Assembly (NCBI GenBank): GCA_963730185.1
Contig: CAVSQW010000007.1
Coordinates: 224,001 to 288,000, forward strand
Origin: an uncultured Gemmatimonadales bacterium
GTDB lineage: Bacteria; Gemmatimonadota; Gemmatimonadetes; Gemmatimonadales; GWC2-71-9
DNA length: 64,000 nucleotides
Reading direction: 5' to 3'
Shown: positions 13,192-59,799 of the stretch, piece by piece
Layout of the letters: every line of letters starts with the position of its first letter
Numbering within the stretch: position 1 is the stretch's first letter
Made by a program: the position numbers and the translations under genes
Notes under the pieces: model-generated
The model's database searches: none
Told to the model about the DNA's origin: nothing
What the model saw: only the letters and a program-made list of their open reading frames with translations

Positions 13192-15198
<2,007 letters not shown>

Positions 15199-48954: not shown

Positions 48955-50046
48955 ATGACCTCGACCACCCCCGGATCGACCGCCCGAGCGCCGGGCCCCT
49001 GGAAGATCGCGACCATCGCCGCGCTCGGCTGGACCACGATCGGCCTCCTCGCCTCCGCCGCCGCGTACGCCAGCTGGGTGCGGGAGGAGTTGGGCGTGTC
49101 CTTCCCGGTCGCGGTGCTGCTCAATCTCCCGACCTGGCTTTTCTGGGCGGCGGTGACCCCGGCGATCGTCTGGCTGGGTCGCCGGTGGCCGCCCCGCTGG
49201 CGACTCGGCGCCATGCTTCCGCACCTGCTCGCCGTGGTGGTGCTCGCGGTCGCGCTCTCGGCCCTGGTCGCCTTCGTGAACGCCTCGGTCAATCCGTTCC
49301 GCGAGCCGGTGCGCTTCGGCCCGACCTTCATCGGGTACCTCACCAACCGCTGGCAGTACGCCCTCCTGATCTATGCCGGCACCCTGGGGACCTGGACCGC
49401 CTGGGACGCCTGGCAGCGGTTGGCTGAGCGCGAGCTCCACGCCGCCCAGCTCGAAGCCCAGCTGGCGGGCGCCCGGCTCGACGCGCTCCGCCGGCAGCTC
49501 GATCCCCACTTTCTGTTCAACACCCTCCAGACCGTCTCCGCCCTGGTCTCCGAGGATCCCCGCGCCGCCCAGCGGACCCTCGCCCTCCTCGGCGACCTGC
49601 TCCGGACCGTGCTGGAGGGCGGCGGCCGGCAGGAGATCCCCCTCGACCAGGAGCTGAGCTTCCTGGACCGCTACCTCGAGATCGAGCGGACCCGCTTTCC
49701 CGACCGCCTCCGGGTCCGCCTCGCGATTGACGACCGGGCCCGCGCGCTCCTGGTGCCGCCCTTCCTGCTCCAGCCGCTGGTCGAGAACGCCGTTCGCTAC
49801 GCGGTCGCGCCCCGGTCGGAGGAGGCGCACGTCGAAGTGGAGGTGGTGGTCGATCGGGATCGGCTCCGGCTGGCCGTCCGCGACGACGGCCCCGGGCCGG
49901 CCCCCGATGCCACCGAGGGCGTGGGCCTCCGCGCCACCCGGGCCCGGCTCGACACGCTGTACGGCGCCGACCACCGCTTCGTCCTGCGCCGCCGACCGGA
50001 GGGTGGGGCCGAGGCCCTGATCGAGCTTCCGGCGAAGGCCCCATGA
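48955..50046 (+). CDS. LytS/YehU-type sensor histidine kinase
   Basis: PHFLFNTL, YLEIERTRF, LQPLVENAVRY, GVGL; TM N-terminus. Confidence 0.9.
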   Translation: MTSTTPGSTARAPGPWKIATIAALGWTTIGLLASAAAYASWVREELGVSFPVAVLLNLPTWLFWAAVTPAIVWLGRRWPPRWRLGAMLPHLLAVVVLAVALSALVAFVNASVNPFREPVRFGPTFIGYLTNRWQYALLIYAGTLGTWTAWDAWQRLAERELHAAQLEAQLAGARLDALRRQLDPHFLFNTLQTVSALVSEDPRAAQRTLALLGDLLRTVLEGGGRQEIPLDQELSFLDRYLEIERTRFPDRLRVRLAIDDRARALLVPPFLLQPLVENAVRYAVAPRSEEAHVEVEVVVDRDRLRLAVRDDGPGPAPDATEGVGLRATRARLDTLYGADHRFVLRRRPEGGAEALIELPAKAP

Positions 50047-50807
50047 CCGGCGACCTGACCGTCCTGCTCGTTGACGACGAGCCCGTGATCCGCCGGGGAC
50101 TCCGCCGGTTGCTCGACCAGGAAGCCGGGGTGAGCGTGGTCGGCGAAGCCCGGAACGGACGCGAGGCGCTGGAGCTGGTCGATGCCCTCGATCCCGATCT
50201 TCTCTTTCTCGACGTCAGGATGCCCGAGGTGGACGGTCTCGAGGTGGCCCGGGCCCTCAGCACCGGGGGGCGGCCCGGGATCGTGTTCGTGACGGCCTAC
50301 GACCGCTACGCCGTCGCCGCGTTCGAACACCACGCCATCGATTACCTCCTCAAGCCGTTCGACGACGTCCGGGTCAGGACCGCCCTGACCCGGGCCCGCG
50401 ACCGCCTGGCCCGGCCCGGCGCGGCCGCCCTGGGAGCCCGGATGCGGAGCCTGCTCGAACAGTTGAGCGGCCCCGAACAGCGATTCGTGGTCCGGGTGGG
50501 ACGGAAGGTCCGGCTGATCGATCCCGACGACGTGGATTGGATCGAGGCGGCCGACAACTACGTCCGCCTGCATGCGGGCGAGGGGCGACACGTGGTCCGG
50601 GAGACGCTCCGGGACCTGGAGCGCCGGCTGGGCGGCGGCCGCTTCGTCCGGATCCACCGGTCGGCCATGGTCAACGTGTCACGGGTCAAGGAGCTGGTGG
50701 CCCAGCCCGGCGGCGACTACACCGTCCTCCTGACCACCGGCGATCGGCTCCGGCTGAGCCGCCGGTACCGGGAGCGGTTCGAGGCGCTGATCGGCCGGGC
50801 GCTCTGA
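50043..50807 (+). CDS. LytTR family response regulator
   Basis: LVDDE, FLDVRMP, DYLLKPF, FVRIHRS. Confidence 0.92.
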   Translation: MTGDLTVLLVDDEPVIRRGLRRLLDQEAGVSVVGEARNGREALELVDALDPDLLFLDVRMPEVDGLEVARALSTGGRPGIVFVTAYDRYAVAAFEHHAIDYLLKPFDDVRVRTALTRARDRLARPGAAALGARMRSLLEQLSGPEQRFVVRVGRKVRLIDPDDVDWIEAADNYVRLHAGEGRHVVRETLRDLERRLGGGRFVRIHRSAMVNVSRVKELVAQPGGDYTVLLTTGDRLRLSRRYRERFEALIGRAL

Positions 50808-50817
50808 CCCGGCCGGG

Positions 50818-52039
50818 TCAGGGCGCGACCAGGACCCCGACCTCCCCGCCGAAGCCGTCGTCGGCGCGGGGCAGGCCGGGCGGCACGGACCAGGCGCCGC
50901 CGTTCAGGCGCAGGTTGACCTGGTGGACCCCGGCTGGGATGGCGGTGCTCAGCGACCAGACGTCGCCCAAGGTCCGCGTCATCGGCACGGGGCGCCAATC
51001 CGTGAAGTCGCCCATGACCTCGATCGAGCTGGCCGCCGCGTTCCGGATGGTGAGCGTGGCGCGGGGACCGTTCTGCCGGGCGAGGGTGAGGGCGCCGGCC
51101 GGTGAGCCCGCCGGCTCGGTCGGCCCGGCCGCGGGACGGCGGTTCACGAGCTCGAGGCCCAGGGCCAGATAGTGGCGGTTCGGAAGGAAGAGCGCGTCGC
51201 CGGCGGGGAGGAACCCGGCGTCGAGGCGCACCACCACCCCGTCGGCCGCGGGCAGCCGGGCCCCGACCGACCAGCCCATCCCGGTCGCCGTGCCCACCGC
51301 GAAGCGACGCGCCAGCCGGGCCTCGAGCCGGAGGCTCGGACCGCTCCACCGGACCCCCAGGCTGGCGACCGTCGGCGTCACCGAGACCGAGCCGTTGCCC
51401 CCGCTGTCGGTGACGGCCGTGTCGGCAATCGGGATCAGACCCGGGCCCCCGAGGGTCGCGAGGCTGAGTGTGTCTTGGCCGGGGAGCACTGGGTTCGAGA
51501 CGGAGGCCGCGCCGGAGCGGGTCGAGACCCGGGCCGCCGAGCGTCCCAGCCGTCCCGAGATGGTGAGGGCCCCGAGCCGGAGGTCGGCCGCGGCCAGGCC
51601 GCCGAGGGCCCAGGCGAACTCGCTCCCGATGGGGCGGGCGGCCGAGAGCCCGGCCCGGAGGGTCAGCCGTCCGTCCGGCCCGCTCGATCAGGGCCCGGCC
51701 GGTGAGCTCGCCGCGGCGGAGTCCATAGCCCGGTACGTCCCAGGCCCCCGCGAGCTCCGCCACCGGCCGCCACCCGATCCGGTGCCCGCCCAGGCGGAGG
51801 TCCACGGTGCCATCCGAGCCCCAGCGGTCGCCCGGTTGGCCGAATACCGACGCGGCGCCCGAGGCGGCCAGCCCCGGTCGCGACCACCGGAGGGCGGACC
51901 CGAACGCCATGCCGCCGGGGGTCGCCGTGCCCGGATCGCCAAGGCGCGCCCCCAGGGTGAAGGTCGGTCGAACCTGGGCCGGGAGGGCCGAGGCCAGCGC
52001 GGCCAGCAGGCCGATCCCGCCCAGAGTGGCGCGCCTCAC
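50818..52039 (-). CDS. Exported beta-rich (putative outer-membrane) protein with C-terminal CBM48/AMPK-type glycogen-binding-like domain; +1 frameshift near 51678
   Basis: Signal peptide LPA-Q; frames 52039 and 51489 join as ERPDGRLTLRAG; C-terminal IEVMGDFTDW..W...GVHQ..NGGAW..DDGFGG. Confidence 0.75.
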
Positions 52040-52632
52040 GGCTCACCCCCCGGCGGGGCCAGCCGGGAGAGCTCGCCCTGGAGGGCGCCGCCGGCGGGGT
52101 CGCCGTCCAGCACCGCGCGCGCCACCCGGTCCCGGACCTGGAGCAGGTCGGCGTCGGGGAGCCCGGTGCCGAGCAGCCGGTCCAGGCCGCCCACGGCATC
52201 GGCCGGGCTCACCCCCCGCTCCACCAAGTCGGTCATCACGGTGATCGCCACGGCCACCGAGCGTCGGCCCGCTCGCTGCTTGAGCCGGGTCAGCGCGTCC
52301 GGCGGGCCGCCGGCTCGGAGCCAGAGCGCACCGACCACGATCTCCTGGTCGTCGGCGGGCGCTCCGATGGCCGACCGGGCCCGCCCCATCGCGGCGTGGA
52401 GCGACGACACGGCGGCCATGATCCGGTCCGGGGCGGCTCCCTTGGCGGCGCCCTCGAGGGCCTTCTGGACCAGCGGCTCCGTCGGCAGCCCCTCGGCGGC
52501 GGCCGAGTTCACCACGGTGGTCACCCGCCTGGCCAAATCGGGGGCGAGTCGTTCCTGGAGTCGGGCGTCCTGGGCGGAGGCCTGGCCCACGGCCAGGGTC
52601 GCCAGCAGCGCCACCAGGCAAAGTCGGATCAC
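52036..52632 (-). CDS. Exported helical hypothetical protein
   Basis: Signal peptide ASA-Q; GLPTEPLVQKALEGAAKG; GTGA overlaps at both ends. Confidence 0.75.
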   Translation of the reverse strand: MIRLCLVALLATLAVGQASAQDARLQERLAPDLARRVTTVVNSAAAEGLPTEPLVQKALEGAAKGAAPDRIMAAVSSLHAAMGRARSAIGAPADDQEIVVGALWLRAGGPPDALTRLKQRAGRRSVAVAITVMTDLVERGVSPADAVGGLDRLLGTGLPDADLLQVRDRVARAVLDGDPAGGALQGELSRLAPPGGEP

Positions 52633-53126
52633 GAGGCCGGCGCTCCGATCGCCACGACCGACGTGGGGGTGTCGAAGTCGGGATCCCGGATCTCGGGGCG
52701 GGCCGGGTCGGCGATCCAGCTGGTACCGTTGACCAGGAAGGCGTAGCGGTACACGCCGTGAGGGAGGTCGAGGGTGGCAGTCCAGCGGCCGTCGGTGCCG
52801 GCATGGAGCAGGGCGCTGTGGCTCCGGTCCCAGTCGTTGAAGTCGCCCACCAAGGCCACCGACCGGGCCTCGGGCAAGCTCAGCTCGAAGCGGACCGGCA
52901 CCGTCGTCGACTCGGAGCCGGCGGGCGCGAGGAACCGGGCGCCGAGCACCGCGAGCACCGCCGCCGCGGCCAGGCCCACCGAGGCCCAGACCAGCGTCCG
53001 GCCGCCCCGGCCCCGGGCCGCCACGGCCCTCAGCACCCGCCGGTCGAATCCCGGGGTCGGGTCCACCGGCGCCCGGCAGGTGGCGATGATCCGGTCCAGG
53101 ATCGGGTCGGTCGGCTCGAGGGTCAT
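52629..53126 (-). CDS. Single-pass membrane protein with CBM48-like domain; putative anti-sigma factor
   Basis: Short N-terminus, TM LVWASVGLAAAAVLAVLGA, then SVALVGDFNDW..W...GVYRYAFLVNG.SW.ADP. Confidence 0.8.
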   Translation of the reverse strand: MTLEPTDPILDRIIATCRAPVDPTPGFDRRVLRAVAARGRGGRTLVWASVGLAAAAVLAVLGARFLAPAGSESTTVPVRFELSLPEARSVALVGDFNDWDRSHSALLHAGTDGRWTATLDLPHGVYRYAFLVNGTSWIADPARPEIRDPDFDTPTSVVAIGAPAS

Positions 53127-53665
53127 GATTCGGCTCCGTCCAGCAGGTCTCGCAACCGCTCGCAGGCCCGGCTCACCCGCATCTTGAGGGCCGGCACGCT
53201 CGCGCCGGTGAGGTCGCGCATCTCCGCATAGCTCAGGTCGTCCCCGTGCTTGAGCAGGAACGCCTCCCGTTGCTCCGCCGGCAGCGCCGTCAGCGCCCGG
53301 TCCAGCTCCTCGCGCCAGCCAACCGCCGGCATCGTCCGATCCTCGGTCGCGACGTGGGTCTCCGCCGCGTCGTCCCACTGGGCGAACATCCGCCGGCGTC
53401 GCTCCCGCCGGCGGAAGGCCGTGCGGCAGCGGTTGACGAGGATGCGGAATACCCAGGCCGGAAACCGCTCGGGATCCGACCCGTCGAGGCCCCGGTAGGC
53501 ACGCACGAACGCATCCTGCACGGCCTCTTCGGCGTCTTCGATCGACCCCAGCATGTTGCGCGCGTACCGGAGGTAGCGTCCCTGATATCGGGCCACCAGC
53601 TGGGCGAACGCCTCGAGATCTCCGGCCCGGGTCCGCTCCACCAGGGTCGCGTCGGAAGGCTCCAC
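53123..53665 (-). CDS. ECF sigma factor (sigma70 group 4)
   Basis: DAEEAVQDAFVRAY, F.AWVFRILVNRC, LPAEQREAFLL, LSYAE; GTG start at 53665 preferred over 53692. Confidence 0.92.
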   Translation of the reverse strand: MEPSDATLVERTRAGDLEAFAQLVARYQGRYLRYARNMLGSIEDAEEAVQDAFVRAYRGLDGSDPERFPAWVFRILVNRCRTAFRRRERRRRMFAQWDDAAETHVATEDRTMPAVGWREELDRALTALPAEQREAFLLKHGDDLSYAEMRDLTGASVPALKMRVSRACERLRDLLDGAES

Positions 53666-53672
53666 TTTGAGT

Positions 53673-53700
53673 AAGACCCCGACAGATGGCACGTGGTCAC
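53673..53700 (-). promoter_or_regulatory. Candidate ECF autoregulatory promoter GTGACC-N16-GGTCTT
   Basis: -35 at 53700-53695, -10 at 53678-53673, 7 nt before GTG. Confidence 0.5.
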
Positions 53701-53729
53701 ATTGCGATTGGAGGACCGCCTGATTGACC

Positions 53730-55913: not shown

Positions 55914-56163
55914 ATGGCAACTCGTATCCGTCTCCGCCGCGTCGGGCGCAAGAAAGTGCCGCTCTACCGGATCGTCGTCGCCGAAGGCACCGCGCCTCGC
56001 GACGGGCGTTTCATCGAGGTGCTCGGCACCTACGACCCACGCGCCCAGGACGACAAGCAGGTCACCGCTCGACGCCGACAAGGCCAAGTCGTGGCTCGCC
56101 AAGGGGGCGACCCCGAGCGACACGGTCGGTGCCCTGCTCAAGAAGGCGGGCGTCGGGGCGTGA
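55914..56163 (+). CDS. rpsP: 30S ribosomal protein S16; +1 frameshift near 56066
   Basis: [16 protein letters not shown]...RDGRFIE.LGTYDP, continuing in next frame [12 protein letters not shown]. Confidence 0.92.
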
Positions 56164-56684
56164 GCGAGGAGCGGCCCCGCCACCTGGTGGTCGGGCGGCT
56201 CCGAAAACCGCACGGGCTGAAGGGCGACTGTACGGTTTTTCCCCTGACCGACGATCCCGAGCTGGCGTTCGCGTCGGGGCAGTCGGTCTGGGTGATGAAT
56301 CTGGGAGGTGAGGAGATCGCCGGCCCGCTCGAGATCGTGCGGAGCCGGGGCTATCACCGGCAGTGGCTGGTGTCGTTTCGGGGGCTCGACTCGCGGGACG
56401 ACGTGGCATCGTGGTGCGACACCCTGCTCGCCGCGCCGGCCGAGACGCTCCGGCCACCCGCGGACGACGAGGTCTACCTCCACGAGCTCGAAGGCTTCGG
56501 CGTGCACGACGAGGCCGGTGAGCCTCTCGGCGTGGTGAGCAAGGTGCTCGAGCTGCCCCAGGGCGTGATGCTCGAGATCCAGGGACCGAAGCGCGAGTTC
56601 CTGCTGCCGTTCCGGAAGGTGTTCGTGAAAGCGATGGACCGGGAGGCGCGGCGGCTGGTGGTCGACCTGCCGGAAGGACTGTAG
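56160..56684 (+). CDS. rimM: Ribosome maturation factor RimM
   Basis: [32 protein letters not shown]. Confidence 0.92.
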
Positions 56685-57889: not shown

Positions 57890-58565
57890 GTGGCGCGGAA
57901 GCAGCCCGGCCTCGAGCGCGAAAAGCTCGCCTGGACCACCGGCGAGCTCCTGATCGGTGTCGACGAAGCAGGCCGCGGCCCGCTGGCCGGTCCAGTGGTG
58001 GCCGCGGCCGTCGTCTTTCCGCCCCAGTCCCGCCGCCGGGGCGGGGTCCGCGACAGCAAGACCCTGAGCGAGCTCCAGCGCGACAAGGCCGCCCTGGCCA
58101 TCCGGAAGGCGGCCCTCGCGATCGGGGTGGGCGCCGCCTCGGTCCGGGAGATCGATCGGATCAACATCCGCCGGGCTACCGCCCTCGCGATGCGCCGCGC
58201 CATCGACCGGGTTCTCCGCACCCTCCCCGCCTCTCCCCGTCCCTCCCCATCCCCCCCCCGTCCCGGCCCGTCCCTTCATCGTCATCCTCGACGGCCTGGC
58301 CATGCCCGAGCTCGGCCTCGATCACGAGGCCCTGGTCGACGGCGACGCGCTCTGCTTTTCGATCTCCGCCGCCGGGATCATCGCCAAGACGGTGCGTGAC
58401 CGACTGATGGCGAGACTCGATCCGCGCTATCCGGGTTACGACTGGTACAGCAATCGCGGCTACGGCACGGAGCACCACCGGCACGCGATCGACCAACTGG
58501 GGCCCACGCCACATCACCGGCGGAGCTTCGCGCCGGTGGCGCAGTTGGGGCTCTTTGGGGGGTAG
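57890..58565 (+). CDS. rnhB: Ribonuclease HII with internal repeat insert; +1 frameshift in C9 run
   Basis: GVDEAGRGPLAGPV, DSK, then DG..SISAAGIIAKTVRD, GYGT, HHRRSF. Confidence 0.9.
58221..58275. repeat. Decamer repeat pyrimidine arm inside rnhB
   Basis: CCCTCCCCGC CTCTCCCCGT CCCTCCCCAT C9GT. Confidence 0.8.
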
Positions 58566-58699: not shown

Positions 58700-59799
58700 A
58701 TGCCCAGCCTCTTCGATCCCGTCGCTTTTCGCGGCGTTCAGCTCCGGAATCGCATCGTCGTCTCGCCGATGTGCGAGTACTCCTCCACCGACGGCTTCGC
58801 CAACGAGTGGCACGTCGTGCACCTCGGGAGCCGGGCCATCGGCGGGGCGGCGCTCGTGTTCACCGAAGCGACCGCGGTGCTTCCCGAGGGCGGATCAGCC
58901 CGGTCGATCTCGGCCTCTGGAAGGACGCGCACGTCGATGTACTCGGGCGGATCGTGGCGTTCGCGGCGGAGCACGGCGCGGCGTGCGGCGTTCAGCTGGC
59001 TCACGCCGGACGGAAGGCCAGCACCCGGCCCCCGTGGGAGGGCCCCGGCAAGGTCGCCGAAGATGCCGGCGGCTGGCGGACGGTCGCGCCGAGCGCGGTG
59101 CCGTACAACGACGACTACCCGATGCCGGACGCGCTCGACGAGGCCGGGATCGCGCGGGTGGTCACCGGTTTCCGGGAGGCCGCGGGCCGGGCTCTCGAGG
59201 CCGGCTTCCGGGTCATCGAAATCCATGCCGCCCACGGATACCTCCTGCACGAGTTCCTCTCGCCCTGGAGCAACCGGCGCACCGACCGCTGGGGCGGGAG
59301 CTTCGAGAACCGGATCCGGCTGCTGAAGGACGTGGTGGAGGCGGTCCGGTCGGTCTGGCCCGAGCGTCACGCGCTCTTCGTCCGGATCTCGGCGACCGAT
59401 TGGAAAGAGGGCGCCTGGGACCTCGACCAGTCGGTGGCGCTGGCCCGCGAGCTCAAGGGGCTTGGCGTCGACCTGGTCGACTGCTCCAGCGGCGGCAACG
59501 TGCACGGGGTGAAGATCCCGATCGGCCCAGGGTATCAGACCCGGCTGGCCGAGCGGGTCCGGCGCGAGGCGGGGATCCCGACCGGCGCGGTGGGGCTCAT
59601 CACCGAGCCGGTCCAAGCTGATCACATCGTCCGGACCGGCCAGGCCGACCTCGTGATCCTGGCCAGGGAGCTGCTCCGCGACCCGTACTGGCCGCTCCGG
59701 GCCGCCCGGGAGCTCGGGCGGCCGGCCAGCTGGCCGGTGCAATATCTCCGGGCCGCGCCGGCGGACTCGCCCCGGCGGGAACCGATCGGGCCGATCTAG
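58700..59799 (+). CDS. NADH:flavin oxidoreductase (Old Yellow Enzyme, YqjM/NamA-like); -1 frameshift near 58890
   Basis: [57 protein letters not shown]. Confidence 0.9.

Follow-up and report, generated by a model that had tools for sequence, protein, structure and literature searches.

A four-gene ECF sigma cassette with two CBM48-fold proteins, widespread in Gemmatimonadota and predicted to control lipoproteins

The analysis of a 64,000-nucleotide stretch from an uncultured Gemmatimonadales bacterium (assembly GCA_963730185.1, contig CAVSQW010000007.1, positions 224,001 to 288,000; the window, whose numbering is used below) reveals a real, phylum-wide and uncharacterised cassette of four minus-strand genes. 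These encode an extracytoplasmic function (ECF) sigma factor, a predicted anti-sigma factor with a domain of carbohydrate-binding module family 48 (CBM48), a secreted helical protein (gene 3) and a predicted outer-membrane barrel protein that ends in a second CBM48 fold (gene 4). With middling confidence, we read the cassette as a modular trans-envelope switch that would monitor the state of the envelope and induce lipoproteins with immunoglobulin (Ig) folds, a scheme whose signal, contacts and release step we infer. Adjacent genes overlap by 4 bp at each junction (ATGA at 53126-53123, GTGA at 52632-52629 and GTGA at 52039-52036), and both this coupling, with its coordinates, and the lack of an attached glycoside hydrolase at the locus had been correctly described in the original prediction.

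The sigma factor (53123-53665, about 180 amino acids) passes the Pfam cut-offs for Sigma70_r2 and r4_2 and matches TIGR02937 of NCBIfam, in which its best 25 matches are all ECF sigma-70 models. Its named close homologues belong to the Gemmatimonadaceae, and the homologue search gave matches at the level of Gemmatimonadota only. The adjoining gene (52629-53126, 165 amino acids) encodes a cytoplasmic part of ~44 residues, one hydrophobic membrane segment (residues 45-63) and a periplasmic CBM48/AMPK-type domain (residues ~76-160), which matches AMPK1_CBM (PF16561) at 36 bits against a cut-off of 26.8 and CBM_48 at 35.6 against a cut-off of 22.4. Its +1 position and topology argue for a predicted anti-sigma factor, and the single-pass protein with an extracytoplasmic CBM48-like domain anticipated at this place is thus recovered above the Pfam thresholds. 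Across the whole genome AMPK1_CBM has two matches only, namely this anti-sigma factor and the tail of gene 4.

The cassette is widely conserved. Relatives of gene 3 occur in 190 of 301 genomes of the phylum (a tally that includes the unpublished G156), with one to five copies each; of these 308 matches, about 150 were listed and 130 loci were mapped. All four parts are present at 110 of the 130 gene-3-seeded loci, 101 of them in the order seen in the window, while the other four-part loci have the barrel gene shifted to before the sigma gene or before gene 3, and a further five loci are cut or partial. Synteny across Gemmatimonadota, which had been proposed as a check, therefore shows a conserved gene order. 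A metagenome scan seeded with the anti-sigma domain, from which 80 of 436 loci were kept, gave the same picture wherever the contig permitted, with the sigma gene upstream in 54/54 cases, gene 3 downstream in 63/63 and the barrel-CBM gene in 42/44. The genes that flank the cassette vary between loci.

A predicted autoregulated promoter precedes the sigma gene (53674-53701, minus strand), as judged by a genome-wide matrix scan and by motif counts in related upstream regions. It consists of a -35 element TGTGAC (53701-53696), a 17-bp spacer and a -10 element GGTCT (53678-53674), which in the window reads GGTCTTA. The likely start codon of the sigma gene, GTG at 53665, lies 8 nt past the -10 element, and the mRNA of the cassette is therefore likely leaderless. 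Position 53700, from which the cassette had originally been taken to run, is instead the first G of the -35 GTGAC. With a matrix trained without it, this promoter is the top-scoring site of the genome (23.1). Across loci the consensus is TGTGAC-N17/18-GGT(C/A)T, and many upstream regions have GGGTATA. The motif, which was set after viewing the first 29 upstream regions, occurs before the sigma gene in 54 of 68 unique related upstreams (shuffled mean 0.7, maximum 3), and 35 of the 68 bear a copy on the other strand (shuffled mean 1.9, maximum 6). Matrix scores of at least 13 were reached at 31 of 57 held-out genome loci and at 53 of 56 metagenome loci; scoring left out six of the 130 loci, which had no sigma gene or no upstream room.

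The opposite-strand copies point to the probable targets. Such a copy was found at 57 of 77 loci with a divergent upstream gene, against 3 of 47 otherwise, and 36 of these 57 divergent genes have a lipobox by a strict expression, against 340 of the 4675 genes of the window's own genome. A Pfam scan took 52 of the 57 (five cut by locus ends were left out) and returned DUF4382 in 21, DUF4397 in six, a carboxypeptidase-regulatory-like domain only in six, no family in 16, and HtrA, BsuPI and a pilin-like family in one each; these 52 include neither a glycoside hydrolase nor a sugar transporter nor a CBM. The window's own genome lacks a divergent gene beside the cassette. Its top-scoring intergenic sites apart from that of the sigma gene lie before a DUF4397 lipoprotein (22.2), an uncharacterised lipoprotein (20.9), a permease-like gene (17.7) and a lipoprotein with an Ig domain (17.5), so that three of the four face lipoproteins. 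A strict-motif scan, backed by a positive control, gave nine matches in five genomes with the cassette, seven of them intergenic and facing a gene (two sigma genes, four lipoproteins and one SusC), and five matches in five cassette-free genomes, none of which (0/5) was intergenic and gene-facing. From these promoter predictions, the regulon is likely limited to the operon of the cassette itself and a few lipoproteins with Ig folds. SusC was rejected as a conserved target, the site being present in 2 of 30 cases, both of them seeds. The second-best promoter site (G000:C14:79389-81178, L091) precedes a DUF4397 lipoprotein gene, which converges on a DUF4382 lipoprotein gene without a site of its own, and a secreted family of ~500 amino acids with no Pfam or NCBIfam match recurs as a divergent target (L054:4447-5940, L059, L063, L067, L099, L102 and L116).

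Gene 3 (52036-52632, 198 amino acids) has a signal-like N-terminus and no Pfam family match, and its structure model consists of helices only, with a predicted local distance difference test score (pLDDT) of 94.8. Fold searches with it found nothing beyond generic bundles and designed repeats, at a Z of 8.2 or below, profile comparison found no internal repeat, and its matches in the ESM Atlas are unnamed Gemmatimonadota clusters; this orphan family has 2324 representatives at E-values up to 0.001. Gene 4 (50818-52039) was modelled through an intact orthologue of the same genus, which gave a barrel of ~14 strands and a well-modelled C-terminal domain (pLDDT 68.8, with the first half of the barrel weak). 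The barrel's best fold matches, OmpG and CymA, are tied at Z 14.8. The tail (about 50821-51090) is below the Pfam cut-offs for AMPK1_CBM and CBM_48 (19.6 and 14.4), and its fold matches the AMPK CBM at Z 11.9 and a root-mean-square deviation (rmsd) of 1.6. Gene 4 is thus a predicted outer-membrane barrel of ~14 strands, and with an even strand number both ends would lie inside, which would place the CBM48 tail in the periplasm. These models agree with the original description of an exported helical protein of no family and a strand-rich exported protein with a second CBM48-type domain, and its anatomy of an inner-membrane CBM48 anti-sigma factor, a periplasmic helical partner and a CBM48-bearing barrel holds as a set of predictions.

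Gene 3 is likely the periplasmic partner of both the barrel and the anti-sigma factor, being tied to the former by gene fusions and to the latter by synteny. Five database proteins (P0121, P0122, P0148, P0244 and P0247) are fusions of gene 3, barrel and CBM48 into a single chain, in which the helical domain stands N-terminal to the ~14-strand barrel and no second signal peptide is visible; a sixth fusion (L084), which retains an inner signal-like stretch, may be an artefact. A complex prediction for the barrel, the helical protein and the anti-sigma CBM48 domain (L034 orthologues, 89-row alignments) scored 0.01 and is evidence neither way. The distance matrices of the three envelope proteins do correlate (r 0.58-0.80), which stems from common ancestry and was given no weight. 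A second, divergent gene 3 paralogue follows the barrel gene in L036, L047, L080, L090, L117 and L152, and in L036 it directly precedes a DUF4382 lipoprotein.

Taken together, the parts would fit a switch of the following kind. The anti-sigma factor would hold the sigma factor at the inner membrane. A bridge would be formed by the helical protein, the periplasmic parts of the barrel and the CBM48 fold of the anti-sigma factor, and the CBM48 folds would direct their aromatic clamp at the helical protein, or else at an altered ligand, and not at alpha-glucan. A disturbance of this bridge would free the sigma factor, probably by proteolysis, as in the release from other single-pass anti-sigma factors; the freed sigma factor would then amplify its own leaderless operon and induce the Ig-fold lipoproteins, which may reach the cell surface.

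Several observations count against this scheme. Contacts between any two parts are inferred, and the envelope role, with domains of unknown function (DUF4382 and DUF4397) as its targets, comes from analogy. Gene 4 is missing at 15 of the 130 loci, so that the barrel is not always local, and the loci are kin and not independent samples. Many relatives at the level of the order have a weak promoter or none (26 of the 57 held-out loci fall below threshold), and genome-wide matrix matches are not enriched over shuffles (178 against 231-267), which leaves weight in that scan only to the top intergenic sites. CymA, which ties as best barrel match, is a cyclodextrin porin. A sugar site may also persist in the CBM48 folds. 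In AMPK beta, according to the accessible part of PMC9788615, Trp100 and Trp133 stack on glucose while Lys126 and Asn150 hydrogen-bond it. Alignments of the 89 four-part loci with full open trios keep Trp100 in 89/89 anti-sigma factors and 89/89 barrel tails and Trp133 in 75/89 and 84/89, respectively; both domains have Phe or Tyr at the Leu146 position, and 80/89 barrel tails have a conserved Arg two residues past the position of Lys126.

These residues bear directly on the sensing of glycogen, maltodextrin or periplasmic glucan that had originally been put forward, in which the barrel would admit maltodextrin or cyclodextrin, both CBM48 domains would bind it and the sigma factor would be released. 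The cassette domains do resemble AMPK beta (PDB 1z0n, 4yef and 6b2e) in fold (rmsd 1.3-1.6 A) and in the two stacking tryptophans, both equivalents of which are present in the window's anti-sigma factor. However, they differ in being periplasmic, in the mostly replaced Asn150 (kept in 35/89 anti-sigma factors, which speaks for glucan, and in 1/89 barrel tails) and above all in Lys126, the sugar hydrogen-bond donor in AMPK (in the accessible part of PMC9788615), which is lost in all 178 domains (0/89 and 0/89), with Ala at its position in the anti-sigma factor and Asn in the barrel tail; the window's anti-sigma factor has Ala for Lys126 and Thr for Asn150. The tie of the 14-strand barrel with CymA, the GH13 (glycoside hydrolase family 13) and glycogen synthase genes of the window's own genome and the motif at a single SusC gene per genome in two genomes would all suit a glucan signal, but none of the 52 scanned targets is a sugar gene, the genes near the own-genome GH13 and glycogen synthase loci reach a promoter score of at most 11.2, and the SusC site is the unconserved one described above. 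Moreover, no GH13 match was found in 26 of the 99 genomes with a verified four-part locus, one of which is a single-contig genome also without glycogen synthase. Because of the lost lysine, the lack of sugar targets and the cassette genomes without GH13, glucan sensing is weakened to an unlikely reading, and envelope monitoring is the likelier one. A plasmid search added one glgB match, which is unrelated.

A control set of 17 loci from a second phylum, labelled Elusimicrobiota in the entry record, was compared at the lysine position. All four sigma-adjacent CBM48 anti-sigma factors lack the Lys (Met or Val instead; three of them have an HxxxCxxC motif), while it is kept in 7/7 CBM48 domains of an amylase locus and in 6/6 of a GGDEF-CBM48 family (one member scanned); of the unassigned membrane proteins, two have Leu, two have Lys and two did not parse. 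All four sigma operons encode a secreted protein weakly like gene 3 (profile E-value 1.5e-4, probability 51%, 132 columns), two of the four also encode a barrel-like protein without CBM48, and the GTGAC promoter was not found before the four sigma genes. Two further features of this phylum were observed. The GGDEF diguanylate cyclase ending in a Lys-intact CBM48 lies among housekeeping genes (L309:4905-6032, L222 and L310-L313) and possibly ties cyclic di-GMP signalling to glycogen, and L315 (2708-8666 and 11452-17767) holds an alpha-glucan locus that encodes two CBM48-GH13 enzymes, a secreted protein with three CBM48 domains, secreted proteins that resemble barrels and a small lipoprotein-like product with CBM48.

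The position-specific nature of the replacements would also be expected if both domains bound a glycan of the cell's own envelope, such as a glycosylated lipoprotein or a peptidoglycan or lipopolysaccharide intermediate, with the sigma factor responding to its build-up in the periplasm. The clamp is conserved while the polar contacts to alpha-glucan are altered in a domain-specific manner (Ala in the anti-sigma factor; Asn and a new Arg in the barrel tail), and the cassette is independent of GH13 content. Nevertheless, no glycan-synthesis gene was found among conserved neighbours or targets, MdoG was not found in 5/5 genomes searched, and the near-obligate helical partner would be left unexplained, so that we regard this possibility as slightly less probable again than glucan sensing.

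The fusions and the regulon raise a different alternative, in which genes 3 and 4 are output and not sensor, forming a split Slam-like translocon that exports the co-regulated lipoproteins while the anti-sigma factor senses alone or senses the load of the pore. Slam, or type XI secretion, joins a TPR domain to a DUF560 barrel. At the level of fold, gene 3 matches generic helical repeats alone, and the barrel model is of middling quality. Such a pore would be consistent with the lipoprotein regulon, with the fusions, whose helical domain comes N-terminal to the ~14-strand barrel, and with the second phylum, where sigma factor and CBM48 anti-sigma factor occur with a protein like gene 3 and, at two of the four loci, with a CBM48-free protein that resembles a barrel. 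Conversely, the scanned gene 3 and barrel orthologues have no DUF560 or TPR match, and gene 3 stays beside the anti-sigma gene at the 15 barrel-less loci, which fits signalling better. We consider this export role doubtful, below both sugar readings, and just as doubtful a combined form in which gene 3 and the barrel make a surface-lipoprotein export pore whose state is coupled to the anti-sigma factor by CBM48 clamps on protein, without TonB or sugar, so that transcription of the lipoprotein cargo would follow the condition of the pore.

Several known systems are related to the cassette. In FecI/FecR/FecA an outer-membrane barrel, an inner-membrane anti-sigma factor and an ECF sigma factor likewise form one chain. 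The cassette differs in that its targets are not uptake genes, it has an extra helical protein, and gene 4, with about 380 amino acids and ~14 strands, has small barrels as fold matches, no plug domain and, in 8 orthologues, no TonB-receptor Pfam match. In SigI/RsgI of clostridia the anti-sigma factor also carries an extracytoplasmic carbohydrate-binding-type module, in a monoderm host whose module faces the medium, with a glycoside hydrolase regulon and a different sigma family, whereas in the cassette the module is periplasmic and Lys-less and the targets are lipoproteins; no RsgI domain was matched by Pfam in the cassette proteins. The best working analogue, of which the cassette may be a split counterpart, is Dma1/Das1 of Bacteroides (ECF21), which according to the accessible part of PMC10927553 reaches across both membranes and has a regulon of three genes, including two for NigD lipoproteins. 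Dma1/Das1 and Reo/EcfO (ECF21, Bacteroidota; same source) hold an ECF sigma factor by an inner-membrane anti-sigma factor tied to an outer-membrane barrel, and a small regulon of uncharacterised lipoproteins is common to Dma1/Das1 and the cassette, for which it is a promoter prediction. As described there, a single Dma1 polypeptide has an anti-sigma domain, a membrane helix, a disordered tether and a barrel of 8 strands, while in the cassette the anti-sigma factor and the barrel of ~14 strands come from separate genes at all 130 loci and the link would run through three proteins, with CBM48 folds. The ECF21 promoter (GCAACC/CGTCT) and NigD targets differ from those of the cassette.

The closest described core is ECF278s1 of Desulfovibrio and Syntrophobacter, for which the accessible part of Casas-Pastor et al. 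2021 (PMC7826278) gives a single-pass anti-sigma factor at +1 with a periplasmic AMPK glycogen-recognition domain, a predicted promoter of GTGAC (-35) and GTATA (-10), and glycogen sensing as a guess, all as prediction only. The cassette shares the +1 anti-sigma factor, its one membrane helix, the AMPK-type periplasmic domain and a matching promoter motif (GTGAC, with GGGTATA in many upstream regions), has GGTCT or GGTAT at -10, and may belong to this group by description; that part of the paper describes neither a member from Gemmatimonadota nor a helical partner, a barrel or target genes. An already described ECF group with this architecture, named beforehand as a possible counter-argument, is thus partly found in ECF278s1, for the two-gene core, its promoter and the glycogen guess and not for genes 3 and 4. 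A pattern scan of the genome collection, aimed at Desulfovibrio ECF278 loci, gave one chance match inside a giant gene. Many anti-sigma factors of class I are noted for Gemmatimonadetes in the accessible part of PMC7406223, and the core is a class-I-type sigma/anti-sigma pair of a kind already predicted in print and not a new class of regulator. A literature search covering few subscription papers found no paper on the four-gene unit, the barrel, the helical partner or the lipoprotein regulon.

For a phylum with almost no genetics, the cassette provides a defined unit of envelope signalling that is widespread and for which promoter and regulon are predicted, and through which the DUF4382/DUF4397 lipoproteins, the orphan helical family and the glycogen-sensing guess for ECF278 become directly testable. 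If the CBM48 folds do bind protein and not glucan, they would clearly exemplify how a starch-binding module is put to new use in signalling, and would constitute a third wiring of the outer membrane to a sigma factor, beside FecIRA and Dma.

Gene 4 carries a single frame change in this assembly, caused by an extra base at 51671. Since this base is missing in 2/2 covering contigs of about 95% identical relatives (one each, from runs X1 and X2), the gene 4 reading frame is intact in 89 relatives, and three other genes less than 9 kb away (rpsP/rimM, rnhB and a flavin oxidoreductase) are broken as well, it is probably an assembly error. At 55914-56684 rpsP continues into rimM in another frame, while rnhB (57890-58565) and the flavin oxidoreductase (58700-59799) are each broken across two frames. 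The assembly is indel-prone, and split genes in this genome call for caution.

Among the neighbouring genes, a LytS-type kinase and a LytTR response regulator (48955-50807) converge on gene 4 with 10 bp between the stop codons; in the flanking genes of related loci this pair is not a conserved neighbour of the cassette. Farther away, a Ser/Thr protein kinase (13192-15198) that has a zinc ribbon at its N-terminus and Sel1 repeats at its C-terminus adjoins a TonB-dependent receptor.

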